From NCBI GenBank assembly GCA_013285995.1, contig JABDGN010000003.1, forward strand, positions 5,317 to 69,316: DNA of 64,000 bases. The letters are read 5' to 3'. The notes under the pieces are model-generated. The model was not told where the DNA came from, made no database searches, and saw only the letters and a program-made list of their open reading frames with translations. A program made the translations under genes and the position numbers. Numbering within the stretch: position 1 is the stretch's first letter; every line of letters begins with the position of its first letter. The DNA is from Gammaproteobacteria bacterium (GTDB lineage: Bacteria > Pseudomonadota > Gammaproteobacteria > JABDGN01). Of the stretch, positions 54,820 to 60,607 are shown piece by piece.

Positions 54820-57800
54820 ATGCGTCAATTTACAATTTTAAAACCATCCCTCCTAGCGTGTTTGCTGATGTTTGCTGGCCTTAATGCGGTCGCCGATACA
54901 CATGTATCTTTGCCGCAGGGTGTGACGGGGGCCTTTACCGTCGCTGGTATGCCTGTGGATAGCGTTAAAGTGGGTGAAACCTTGACTTATACCATCACTA
55001 ACAACTCGCAAGAAGTGTTGAGTGATTTTTATGTTGATAGCGCGCACTTGCCTAGCCAATTTAAATTAATAGCCAATGGTGGCGAGCATCCTTGTTCGAT
55101 TAATCCCGCCAATAAAATTTCATTAATGACCGTTCCCAATAGTGATTTGGAACATCCGCATTTACCGACCAATTATTGCACTTTGACGGGTGAGTTTACG
55201 GAATCAGTACCAGCACAAGCGCAAGGCTTAACGTTCAACTTGCCACTCCATTTTGCAGAACCGGGTTCTATGAATGTTAACCCGCCTATGGTTCAAGCTG
55301 ATTTGCCAGCTCATTTGAAGGCCATCAGTGATACCTCTGATTCATTGCCAGCGGGCGTGACCGGCGCGTTTTCGGTGGACGGTAAAGCTGTTGCAACAGT
55401 GAAAGAAAATCAAACTGTTGTCTACACGATTACCAATGGTTCTGGGACAGAGTTGGAGAATGTTTATGTCGATAGAGCAAGCCTGCCTACGAATTTTGTT
55501 TTAGATGAGTACGCTGGCTGGCGTCATTGCTCAGTATATCTGGAAGGTAAAACACCTCTAGTGACTACGCCAGCGGATGCAGCATCTCCGCACTTGCCGA
55601 CTAATTACTGTACCTTAACGGGTTATTTTACCAGTGCGGGGGAAGTTGCATGGAATATTAACATGCACTTTTCAATCGGTAGCACGAGTTATGAACCCGA
55701 GTTTACCGCCAAAATGACGGGTAAATTGGAGGTGGGAAATCCACACCAAGCCATTCCGGTGTATGTGTTTGGTGATAGTTGGTCAGATATGGGAAATAAC
55801 GGCATTGCAACCAATAAGCCCAATGGCAAAACCTGGGCTTATTATGTGGCGCAAGATTATGACAACCTGAACGGAATTCAGGCTTCTAAAAATGGTGGTA
55901 CAGATTATGCGCAGGGCGGGGCTTTAGCGGCAGCTGCAATAACGCAAGTTGATAGCTATCTTAACTCGCATAATAATCGTGCTGATCCGAAAGCTTTGTA
56001 TATTTTCTTTATTGGCGGTAACGATATACGTAATGCTTCTACCGTACAAAAGCAAACGATGGAAACTGCCGCTGGCAAAGTGAGCGAAGCCGCCAAACAC
56101 TTATTGGAAAGTGGCGCTCAGCATGTGGCTGTGGTAAATATTCCCATTTATAAAGATGTCAAGAATATTCCTGAAGCGCTGCGCCCTTTTATTCCACAAA
56201 TCGTTATTACTAATGGTGACAATTCAGAAACATTTAACACTAAGTTGTCGAATGAAGTAACAGCGTTGCAAGGAACCTATAAGGATAGAATTGATTTGGT
56301 TGACCTATATAAACCAATGATAGGCTTAATGTTGCCTGATTCGATGGGCGGCAACCAGGCTATCAAAGATCACTATAAATTTGATGCAGTCTTTGATTTA
56401 ATCCCTGCTATTAAAACCTATTCTTGTGCTGATGCGAACCGGCTGTTGAAGTCGGCCTGTGAAGAAACCAATTGGTTCTTTTACGACACAGATGACAATG
56501 GTATTCCATTGCATCCGGCTGACTATATTATTCAGGTTGGACCTGAAAAAGGTACGCATGCCGGTGGCCACATATTTTTTGCTAAAGAATTTATGAAAGC
56601 CTATAAATATGTACCTGGCGACGAAACACCCCCACCCGTGGATGATAGTGTATCGTTCAGCGGCAAATTATTAGACGATAAAGGCCAAGCTTTAACCCGT
56701 GTAGAAGTAGGTCATGCAGTTGTTTATAAAGTCACTAATACGTCACCTGCACAAGGGGTTAGCCTTTACTTAAGTGGTGCATTGCCAGCCCATTTTGTGT
56801 TGAATACAGCGGGCACCCACTGTGCGCTCAATGAACATCCAGCAACCGATTTAGCGCCTAATCAAAGCTGTGAATTAGTAGGCACTTTTAGCAAACCTAT
56901 TTTGCTTGGACAAACCGTTAAAATGGATTTTAAAGTAAACTACAAGCGTGCTCATACGGATGCAAGCTGGACGGCTTATAACATGGCGTCGTTTACTGTA
57001 GGTGTTTACCAACCTTTGTATGTGTTCGGCGATAGTTTGTCGGATATGGGTAATGAAGTCGATCCGCAATTTAAAGCCAAATTAGGGGCTCTGCCATTCC
57101 CAGCTAGAGGCCCTTATACTAGTGTGGACGGTAAAAAGTATGGTGGGGAAACTTGGGTTGTCGATGTTGCCAAGCAGTTGGGTAACACAACTATTACGGC
57201 TTCCCGTCCGATAAATAATGGTGCGCACGGTACAGATTATGCGGTAAGTGGCAGTACCACGTCAGGGTTGGATGCACAGTTGACAGCGCTTAAACAAGAT
57301 CATCCGCAATTGGACGGCGATGCTTTATATGTCGTGTGGTCGGCTGGTAATGATTTCTTGTATCAGGCCTTGAGCAATAAAGGCTCTACAGACTATTCAC
57401 CTGCCGCAAAGACAGCTGCAAATAATATGATTAACTTCATTAAGAAATTGCAGGCAACTAACATAAAACATATCGTGGTGATCAATTTACCACCGATTGG
57501 TTATACGCCTCTCATTGCTAACAATGTGTTTGATCTGGTGGGAAGTGGCAAAAAAGATCCAATGAATAAAGCGGTCGACACCTACAACACACAATTAGCT
57601 AACTTTGTCCACGCTGATACAAGTGGCAAATTAAAATTAGTGGATATGTATACACCCGCAGAGGCTTTATACGAGAGTAATGGCGCTAGCTATACAAAAA
57701 TCAAGTTTACAGATGTTAAGACATCTTGTTGGAATGTGATAGGATTTTTTAGTTGCGGGCCTAAAAAACAGCCAGGATTTTTCTATTGGGATACCATACA

Positions 57801-57864
57801 TCCTAGCAACAGCGGCCACTTGTTTTTAGCGGATCAATTTATGGAATCTTATAACGCACAATAG
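54820..57864 (+). CDS. secreted tandem-domain GDSL/SGNH hydrolase (three N-modules and two catalytic domains)
   Basis: Signal peptide MRQFTILKPSLLACLLMFAGLNAVA. Two GDSL blocks (VYVFGDSWSDMGNNG and LYVFGDSLSDMGNEV), each with GGND and DxxHP blocks. Three copies of a roughly 150-aa N-module ending HLPTNYCTLTG. Confidence 0.8.
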   Translation: MRQFTILKPSLLACLLMFAGLNAVADTHVSLPQGVTGAFTVAGMPVDSVKVGETLTYTITNNSQEVLSDFYVDSAHLPSQFKLIANGGEHPCSINPANKISLMTVPNSDLEHPHLPTNYCTLTGEFTESVPAQAQGLTFNLPLHFAEPGSMNVNPPMVQADLPAHLKAISDTSDSLPAGVTGAFSVDGKAVATVKENQTVVYTITNGSGTELENVYVDRASLPTNFVLDEYAGWRHCSVYLEGKTPLVTTPADAASPHLPTNYCTLTGYFTSAGEVAWNINMHFSIGSTSYEPEFTAKMTGKLEVGNPHQAIPVYVFGDSWSDMGNNGIATNKPNGKTWAYYVAQDYDNLNGIQASKNGGTDYAQGGALAAAAITQVDSYLNSHNNRADPKALYIFFIGGNDIRNASTVQKQTMETAAGKVSEAAKHLLESGAQHVAVVNIPIYKDVKNIPEALRPFIPQIVITNGDNSETFNTKLSNEVTALQGTYKDRIDLVDLYKPMIGLMLPDSMGGNQAIKDHYKFDAVFDLIPAIKTYSCADANRLLKSACEETNWFFYDTDDNGIPLHPADYIIQVGPEKGTHAGGHIFFAKEFMKAYKYVPGDETPPPVDDSVSFSGKLLDDKGQALTRVEVGHAVVYKVTNTSPAQGVSLYLSGALPAHFVLNTAGTHCALNEHPATDLAPNQSCELVGTFSKPILLGQTVKMDFKVNYKRAHTDASWTAYNMASFTVGVYQPLYVFGDSLSDMGNEVDPQFKAKLGALPFPARGPYTSVDGKKYGGETWVVDVAKQLGNTTITASRPINNGAHGTDYAVSGSTTSGLDAQLTALKQDHPQLDGDALYVVWSAGNDFLYQALSNKGSTDYSPAAKTAANNMINFIKKLQATNIKHIVVINLPPIGYTPLIANNVFDLVGSGKKDPMNKAVDTYNTQLANFVHADTSGKLKLVDMYTPAEALYESNGASYTKIKFTDVKTSCWNVIGFFSCGPKKQPGFFYWDTIHPSNSGHLFLADQFMESYNAQ

Positions 57865-57878
57865 TGCAGGAGAAAATC

Positions 57879-59276: not shown

Positions 59277-59290
59277 GATAAGCAGCTATC

Positions 59291-60607
59291 ATGATGAAAA
59301 CACGTAATAATACCACGGAAAAAGTATTGGGTTTCATAAGCCTGGTGTGTTTTTCTCTGTATTCAATAACTGCACAAGCGGCTGCTGAATTAGCAGTCGA
59401 AGGTAATATACCGACTAAACTGGAAATTAATCATGAGGTCACTTACCAGATTAAAAATATTTCGCAGAATACGTTAACCGATGTTGCTATTGTGGCTCCC
59501 GAATTGGCAAGTGGTTTTGAAACTGTCAGCAATACTTGCCAGGGTTATACCACGCTGCATGCCAATGACAGTTGCAATTATACCTTGCGTTTCACGCATC
59601 CAATTGCTTATGTCAGCGCAACTCAACCCGCGTTTGCATGGAATATCAGCGTAAAATACTCGCTCGCAGGCGAAGTGCGCGAAGCTGTGATTGCAGCGCC
59701 CCCCATTCAAGAAGTTTATCAACCCCTATACGTGTTTGGCGACAGTTTGTCAGATATGGGCAACAATGGTAAGTCAACCAATGCTGAGGGTAACACCTGG
59801 GCTTATTATGTCGCCCAGGCGTTTGGTAATGCCGATATAGGTGCATCAAAAAATGGTGGTACGGATTTTGCCAGGGGAGGCGATACCACCGCCAATTTAA
59901 TTTTACGACAACAAGCTAAGAATGATGAAGGGGATTCAATCCCTCTTATCATTCCCAGTCAATTTGAGTTTTATCAAACGGCCTTGGGTGACCAGGTTGA
60001 TCCTAATGCTTTATATGTGGTGTGGATGGGAGGAAACGACTTTTTATGGTATACGGCAGAATTTAAAGACGATCCTGCTAACGCTGAGCCTAGAATCCAA
60101 GCTGGCGTTAAAAATATTGATAGCTTCTTAGAGAAATTAAATAGCTTGGCAATGGCGAATGCTGTGACTCTCAATGTGGTGGTGATAAGCTTGCCACCCA
60201 TGGGAAATGCGCCTTTATTTGGCCCACTTGAGGAAGGTAAAATCCGTTTAAATTATGATGTCACACAAAGAAACAACCTTAGCCTGGTTGCACAAAATTT
60301 TAATACGCAATTAGAGAATTCTTTGCGTACTAATGAAACCTTATCACATATTAAATGGCGAATGATTGATTCTTATGCCCCTTCACAAAAACTCGTGGAT
60401 GACTTTAACCACAGCACAGAGGTACCTAAACAAGCGTGTGGTTTTACCAACATCAGTAATGAGTCCAAGGATTGGGCGCTGCATAATCAATATTATTATT
60501 GGGATAATGTCCATCCGACGGATGGCGCACATAAATATTTTGCTAAACAATTTATGGCAGCTTATAATGGCACGGTTCATGATTGTAAGCAAAATCCAAT
60601 ACATTGA
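59291..60607 (+). CDS. secreted GDSL/SGNH hydrolase (paralog 3)
   Basis: Signal peptide ...ITAQA. LYVFGDSLSDMGNNG, WMGGNDF and YYWDNVHPTDGAH. Confidence 0.8.
   Translation: MMKTRNNTTEKVLGFISLVCFSLYSITAQAAAELAVEGNIPTKLEINHEVTYQIKNISQNTLTDVAIVAPELASGFETVSNTCQGYTTLHANDSCNYTLRFTHPIAYVSATQPAFAWNISVKYSLAGEVREAVIAAPPIQEVYQPLYVFGDSLSDMGNNGKSTNAEGNTWAYYVAQAFGNADIGASKNGGTDFARGGDTTANLILRQQAKNDEGDSIPLIIPSQFEFYQTALGDQVDPNALYVVWMGGNDFLWYTAEFKDDPANAEPRIQAGVKNIDSFLEKLNSLAMANAVTLNVVVISLPPMGNAPLFGPLEEGKIRLNYDVTQRNNLSLVAQNFNTQLENSLRTNETLSHIKWRMIDSYAPSQKLVDDFNHSTEVPKQACGFTNISNESKDWALHNQYYYWDNVHPTDGAHKYFAKQFMAAYNGTVHDCKQNPIH

Follow-up and report, generated by a model that had tools for sequence, protein, structure and literature searches.

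A gammaproteobacterial tandem array of predicted exported GDSL/SGNH lipolytic enzymes fused to divergent HYDIN/VesB-like immunoglobulin modules

We analyzed a 64,000-nucleotide (nt) stretch of a gammaproteobacterial genome (GTDB lineage JABDGN01; GenBank assembly GCA_013285995.1, contig JABDGN010000003.1, positions 5,317 to 69,316 of the forward strand), called the window below and numbered from its own first letter. Three consecutive open reading frames (ORFs) on its plus strand at 54820-60607, designated g1, g2, and g3, lie between purA (53344-54636) and the gene of an M20 peptidase (60612-62066). On balance, they probably form an operon-like array encoding three Sec-exported GDSL/SGNH lipolytic enzymes that use a type II secretion system (T2SS) for export and carry immunoglobulin (Ig)-like modules as accessory domains. 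The repeating unit would consist of one Ig-like beta-sandwich, with one predicted Cys pair, directly followed by one SGNH domain. This unit would have been duplicated long ago to four copies, two of which became fused in g1, which would later have gained a fifth Ig module; the enzymes would exit the periplasm via the T2SS.

Three consecutive genes encode four SGNH domains

The tandem array of exported GDSL/SGNH hydrolases with four catalytic domains, proposed in an earlier note made from the DNA letters alone (the original prediction), was clearly recovered with Pfam. Lipase_GDSL (PF00657) scored 122.5, 78.7, and 74.2 bits in the three genes, far above the gathering cut-off of 23.6, with E-values from 2e-20 to 3.5e-35. 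Two matching stretches were found in g1 (54820-57864, plus strand; E 3.5e-35), which thus has the two catalytic domains ascribed to it, while its product, counted from the Met of MRQF, comprises 1014 amino acids plus stop rather than 1015. The order in g1 is signal peptide, Ig modules M1a and M1b, SGNH domain D1, Ig module M1c, and SGNH domain D2. The products of g2 (57879-59276, plus strand, 465 amino acids; supported by the ORF call, Pfam, AlphaFold, and an alignment with PlaA) and g3 (59291-60607, plus strand, 438 amino acids; ORF call and Pfam) each consist of a signal peptide, one Ig module (M2 and M3, respectively), and one SGNH domain. The start of g2 is most likely the ATG at 57879, since an AGGAG stands 8 nt upstream of it, and this start agrees with the call in a public collection; g2 residue numbers given below follow a 470-residue numbering counted from 57864. 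The Logan assembly L001, made independently, agrees with the window at every position across 9339 bp, so the long fused ORF of g1 is not an artifact of the window.

The ORF calls also bear out the claim of three consecutive genes each with a signal peptide, as all three N termini carry what look like Sec signal peptides with AxA-type sites, read from the sequence. That of g1 occupies 54820-54894 (residues 1-25, ending in GLNAVA before DTH), and that of g3 occupies 59291-59380 (plus strand). A reading of the proteins as Dot/Icm effectors was rejected because all three have Sec signal peptides.

The SGNH blocks, said to be complete in all four domains, turned out to be so in part. Blocks I to III are present in every domain, with block I reading FGDS(L/W)SDMGN in four of four and block III of g2 reading GGNN, and an alignment including distant homologues shows no variation at the Ser of block I, the Gly of block II, the Asn of block III, and the His of block V. 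The canonical block V, DxxHP, is found in three of the four domains: D2 of g1 (57010-57861, residues 731-1014; Ser739, Asn844, Asp991, His994), the g2 domain (58359-59273; Ser174, Asn287, Asp447, His450), and the g3 domain (59720-60604; Ser152, Asn249, Asp405, His408). In D1 of g1 (55753-56613, residues 312-598; Ser320, Asn401), the corresponding segment reads FFYD556-TDDNGIPL-H565-P, a D-x8-H arrangement with Asp and His 9 residues apart, and a further 13-residue insertion follows HP. D1 may therefore be catalytically impaired or have an altered triad. The pairwise identity of the catalytic domains is merely 37-42%, so the expansion is old and not recent as first proposed; even the youngest duplication, that of M1a and M1b, has diverged to 49% identity.

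The enzymes group with Legionella PlaA, Pseudomonas ChoE and EstA, and the Vibrio lipase/transferases on one branch of the SGNH family, and their activities are likely those of a lysophospholipase, phospholipase A, or acyltransferase. Pseudomonas EstA/EstP GDSL esterases have a related SGNH domain, but the autotransporter beta-barrel (PF03797) of those proteins is absent here. An autotransporter or PKD domain fused to GDSL had been named beforehand as an outcome that would speak against the proposal; the Pfam scan found neither in g1-g3 at E <= 1.

Five divergent modules of an Ig-like family

Five homologous modules of about 115-150 residues are present, one before each catalytic domain and one extra at the start of g1, so that the count of five with two in tandem stands. 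In leave-one-out profile searches they scored 25.6-59.6 bits (M1a, 25.6 bits), compared with at most 13.9 bits for the best of 2000 shuffles. Their positions, all on the plus strand, are 54895-55344 for M1a (residues 26-175; Cys92, Cys120; alignments and 27.7 bits with the hidden Markov model [HMM] of foreign repeats), 55345-55752 for M1b (residues 176-311; Cys237, Cys264; alignment, leave-one-out test, and the foreign-repeat HMM described below), 56620-57009 for M1c (residues 601-730; Cys668, Cys684; alignment and 54.8 bits with the foreign-repeat HMM), 57957-58358 for M2 (Cys101, Cys117), and 59381-59719 for M3 (Cys83, Cys95; 53.5 bits with the foreign-repeat HMM). M1c is preceded by the Pro-rich linker PGDETPPPVDD.

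The five-module alignment has invariant Y, N, L, F, C, L, C, and F positions within a shared core, Y..(T/K)N.S ... L(P/A)..F ... C ... L ... C ... F. Several details of the earlier description had to be corrected. Each module contains exactly two Cys, that is, one pair and not two, and the motifs LPxGVTGAF and HLPTNYCTLTG.F, presented as the conserved pattern, are confined to M1a and M1b, as is a 12-residue insertion between the Cys. These two modules are also the closest pair (49% identical). Module identities, put at roughly 30-40%, spread more widely when measured, from 29 to 49% in local and from 19 to 43% in global alignments. The proposed beta-sandwich, on the other hand, agrees with the AlphaFold model of the module, which is an all-beta sandwich with a core predicted local distance difference test (pLDDT) score of 89-95. 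In the two-domain model (predicted template modeling score, 0.73), the module passes straight into the first SGNH strand, with about 5 residues between the last module strand and that strand (QP(V/L)YVFGDS).

The modules had also been described as apparently novel, an impression that arose because direct Pfam and NCBIfam scans miss them. Membership in DUF11 (PF01345/TIGR01451) was rejected, as the scores were 13.1 bits against 24.6 and 13.2 against 24, respectively. The alignment of the five modules gave no matches in a word-indexed homology search. An exhaustive HMMER search with the five-module profile against 1.84 billion representative proteins (E <= 1e-3) returned 143 matches, the top three of which are the window's own proteins. 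The outside matches are long proteins with 2-16 matching stretches, the sole exception being a single-stretch fragment (P0132), and many of them have signal-peptide or lipoprotein N termini. These proteins score for PF22544 (HYDIN/CFA65/VesB-like Ig), ASH (PF15780), DUF11, and Cep192_D4, exceeding the thresholds of PF22544 and of ASH or DUF11; choice-of-anchor D (NF012200) exceeded its cut-off in three of the nine outside proteins scanned, and PF22544 matched 7 of 27 intermediate repeats, with a best E-value of 3.9e-13.

The link between these foreign repeats and the window modules holds in both directions. Aligned to the 27 foreign repeats with hhalign, the window modules gave a probability of 98.7% (E 2.5e-16), and an HMM built from foreign repeats only recovered all five window modules at 26-55 bits. 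Both sets share the pattern TN.S ... P..F ... C ... LAP..sC.l.g.F. The foreign-repeat profile further matched the C-terminal Ig-fold of VesB (PDB 4lk4, residues 262-346) with an E-value of 1.9e-8, as well as VesC (E 1.4e-4) and the ciliary protein FAP65 (E 0.018). An alignment of the window-module profile to the VesB segment reached 62.5% (E 7e-5) and brought both Cys into register. In Foldseek, the module matched Ig-like sandwiches exclusively, namely the TRAP-beta, PapD, MSP, and ASH types. The sequence comparisons thus argue strongly for a divergent representative of the HYDIN/CFA65/VesB-like (ASH, choice-of-anchor D) Ig family and against a new fold, and the structural comparison is consistent with this but weak.

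Some observations weigh against this assignment. A direct scan of the modules with curated models gave no PF22544 match at E <= 10 (Pfam) and no NF012200 match at E <= 1 (NCBIfam), and the best curated scores were those of DUF11 (E 0.12) and TIGR01451 (E 0.068). The window-module profile alone found nothing relevant in PDB. The Foldseek E-values were 5e-3 or worse (PDB), with VesB outside the top 50. It could be asked whether the module is a truly new family whose likeness to HYDIN/VesB-type Ig domains is convergent, arising from the beta-sandwich, the Cys pair, and a biased composition. The lack of detection by any curated model, the weak Foldseek matches, and the modest per-repeat scores of the outside proteins to the module profile (at most 37 bits) fit such a view, but we consider it very improbable given the reciprocal profiles, in which the window profile finds the foreign repeats and the foreign-only profile finds every module at up to 55 bits, the hhalign result, and the aligned invariant N, C, and C together with the LAP..sC.l.G.F strand common to both.

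With membership in the HYDIN/VesB-like family preferred, the module differs from its relatives in its setting. The only relatives of the module outside the window score for HYDIN, ASH, choice-of-anchor D, or LegT-model repeats, while the window modules remain below every curated threshold; those relatives occur as 3-16 tandem repeats without an enzyme domain, whereas here the modules are placed on lipases and M1a/M1b carry their insertion. For annotation, the practical consequence is that the label should be ASH/HYDIN-like Ig domain, which the Pfam and NCBIfam models miss.

Two side observations concern the outside proteins. The NCBIfam model of LegT, a Legionella Dot/Icm effector, matched 3-8 times per protein in P0022, P0024-P0027, and P0046 with its N-terminal positions ~59-260, far below its cut-off; LegT itself may contain this Ig domain, and its model picks up unrelated repeat proteins. 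P0026, a 763-residue Ig-like protein with seven repeats, is named "ribosomal protein L32" by one source, which looks like a misannotation.

Rarity of the Ig-GDSL fusion

A purpose-built GDSL HMM found no GDSL domain in any of the 140 outside module proteins, and the foreign-repeat HMM found no module in any of the GDSL homologues of g2. Searched at full length against 5.8 billion clusters, g2 matched itself and otherwise GDSL domains of at most 33% identity over about 64% of the query; a search of genome contigs with g2 gave no relative. Since no outside module protein has a GDSL domain, the fusion looks specific to the lineage. Fusions of other Ig-like domains with GDSL do exist, for instance the TIG and GDSL protein P0017. 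With regard to the possibility, raised at the outset, that the module would match a known domain with described GDSL fusions, the family did prove to be a known one, but no fusion of it with GDSL was found, either described or in the databases. What is new is thus the combination of two known families and neither of the components. Apart from the question of the Ig module, the array amounts to ordinary secreted GDSL lipases that expanded in one lineage, and it is chiefly useful for annotation.

Relationship to Legionella PlaA and a putative lid loop

The best solved relative of the enzymes is PlaA (PDB 8a24), matched with E-values of 1.9e-62 by profile, 4e-14 by single sequence, and 1e-12 by Foldseek on the AlphaFold model. 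Scores with the PlaA equivalog model NF045906, whose cut-off is 450 bits, lay at 52-101 bits (maximum 101.5), and the PlaC model NF045907 reached at most 67.8 bits against 700; judged by these scores, the catalytic domains of g1-g3 are relatives and not orthologues of PlaA and PlaC. In common with PlaA (8a24-8a26) and PlaC they have a signal peptide, the SGNH blocks, and a Cys pair just before block V, where the lid loop of PlaA lies. They differ in sequence (about 25% identity) and in the N-terminal Ig module, which PlaA and PlaC lack, and the loops in g1 are far shorter.

The Cys pair just upstream of block V is formed by C536/C547 in D1 and C970/C979 in D2 of g1 and by C414/C436 in g2, while g3 has C383 before block V and C432 near its C terminus. 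A HMMER alignment places the g2 pair on the two Cys bounding the lid loop of PlaA, a type II secreted enzyme that is activated when ProA cleaves this disulfide loop (bioRxiv 10.1101/2023.03.24.534060). By analogy, the pair could delimit a PlaA-like lid loop, possibly gating activity, most plausibly in g2 with its 21-residue loop. Speaking against such a role in g1, the loops of both of its domains span just 8-10 residues and are perhaps too short to serve as lids. The g2 domain has, in addition, Cys226 and Cys233 (EQCDGEPKICGTD, 58539-58562) just before block II, which are lacking in the other three catalytic domains and may close a further small disulfide loop in the vicinity of the oxyanion-hole Gly.

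Possible roles of the Ig modules

That the module is a noncatalytic accessory is what we hold with the greatest confidence as regards its role. What it contributes can be proposed more tentatively. The sole experimental precedent for this type of Ig domain is VesB, and for this reason a role in secretion and stability is ranked first: the module might provide a recognition surface and folding stability for type II secretion, a possibility we put forward by analogy. The Ig-fold of VesB acts as a T2SS signal that depends on the PDZ domain of EpsC and can be moved onto beta-lactamase, and VesB is destabilized when the fold is deleted (PMC12369372). VesA, VesB, and VesC of V. cholerae (PDB 4lk4, 6bqm) are T2SS-secreted proteases whose Ig domains fall in the same family by profile, with an aligned Cys pair, and VesB resembles the enzymes described here in that a secreted hydrolase is joined to one domain of this kind. 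It differs in being a trypsin-like protease and in having a GlyGly-CTERM sorting signal, which is not present in g1-g3. Two further points count against a secretory role: the Ig domain is N-terminal in g1-g3 and C-terminal in VesB, and the 64-kb window contains no T2SS genes.

The same type of Ig domain on every catalytic unit, at the opposite terminus, would make the array a natural test of whether the domain is a general secretion or stability cassette. A bolder extension, which we regard as doubtful, is that the HYDIN/VesB-type Ig-fold is a portable T2SS-targeting module recruited independently by trypsin-like proteases in Vibrio and by GDSL lipases here. If true, the four "grafts" made by nature in this deep, unsampled gammaproteobacterial lineage would offer independent evidence on the recognition of T2SS substrates, the 2025 work on VesB having identified one Ig-fold with a transferable PDZ-dependent signal (PMC12369372).

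A somewhat less likely possibility is that the Ig modules bind a target or substrate, thus holding the lipases on the surface of a host, a prey, or the producing cell, with their divergence reflecting different targets. The relatives of the module are long, adhesin-like tandem arrays in surface proteins with lipoprotein or signal-peptide N termini, and the modules have diverged as much as or more than the catalytic domains (29-49% versus 37-42% identity). The Vibrio lipase/transferases provide a parallel, since their N-terminal domain of about 110 residues, beta-rich and with no function assigned, packs on the SGNH domain near the active site (PMC10412561, PMC7796666). These enzymes (thermolabile hemolysin, VvPlpA [PDB 6jkz], and ValDLT [PDB 8h09]) have the same layout of signal peptide, N-terminal domain, and SGNH domain, and Foldseek aligned about 450 columns across both domains, with a full-length root mean square deviation of about 15 A. 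Homology of their N-terminal domain with the module received no support from profiles or Foldseek, as the module profiles did not match it at E <= 1 and the 50 best Foldseek matches of the module did not include it. For the modules themselves, neither ligand-binding residues nor a known binding family could be named, and VesB, the only experimentally characterized Ig domain of the type, serves secretion and stability (PMC12369372). Binding and secretion roles are, however, compatible with each other.

That the N-terminal module is instead a removable prodomain, an intramolecular chaperone or inhibitor cut off on activation, is highly unlikely: PlaA and PlaC are indeed activated by proteolysis and a peptidase gene follows g3, but the PlaA cut is in the lid loop and not in an N-terminal domain (bioRxiv 10.1101/2023.03.24.534060), the few residues joining the module and SGNH strands leave no flexible linker to cleave, the g1 modules are internal, and the M20 protein has no signal peptide.

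Transcriptional organization and genomic surroundings

The spacers between g1 and g2 and between g2 and g3 are 14 nt each, and that between g3 and the M20 gene is 4 nt; the three lipase genes are therefore probably cotranscribed, and the M20 gene, whose product looks cytoplasmic, may be cotranscribed with them. The latter (60612-62066, plus strand), coding for an M20-family metallopeptidase, is given as context only, with no demonstrated role in the system. Its start is most plausibly the ATG at 60612, following the g3 stop (TGAAAAAATG, window 60605-60614), and the public gene call, whose start at 60567 gives it an overlap of about 40 nt with g3, is probably too long.

Promoter and terminator scans of the locus gave results at the level of chance. 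A hairpin at 60662-60685 was rejected as a terminator because it lies inside the M20 coding sequence. The 183-nt spacer between purA and g1 contains TGTATAAT (54710-54717), in which TG precedes a perfect -10 hexamer, and g1 starts about 100 nt further downstream; the consensus scan omitted this element for lack of a matching -35 hexamer. The GC content at third codon positions is slightly lower in g1-g3 (0.35-0.40) than in the neighboring genes (0.41-0.48), with no striking compositional island.

Housekeeping genes in the window include tig, lon, ppiD, thrA, ddl, prmB, hflKC, purA, ndk, and rlmN. The closest matches found had at most 67% identity for Lon and 62% for PurA, the named matches coming from diverse Gammaproteobacteria. 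The order hflC-purA is conserved in other Gammaproteobacteria, and nothing downstream of purA matches.

Some further features of the window lie apart from the array. A giant ORF of 2744 amino acids on the minus strand (5826-14060) has a GC content of 52-59%, compared with about 42% for the genome, and no Pfam match; its Pro-rich N-terminal third, with PS/PPSP repeats, is followed by a hydrophobic Cys-rich segment and then by about 1700 residues of low complexity rich in Ser, Ala, Thr, and Gly. Two plus-strand ORFs of 459 and 648 amino acids (1165-2544 and 17835-19781, respectively) matched neither NCBIfam nor Pfam models at the thresholds applied. Four tRNA genes are located on the plus strand at 31849-31930, 38722-38794, 38883-38956, and 47747-47834, two of them shortly past the end of lon at 38093.

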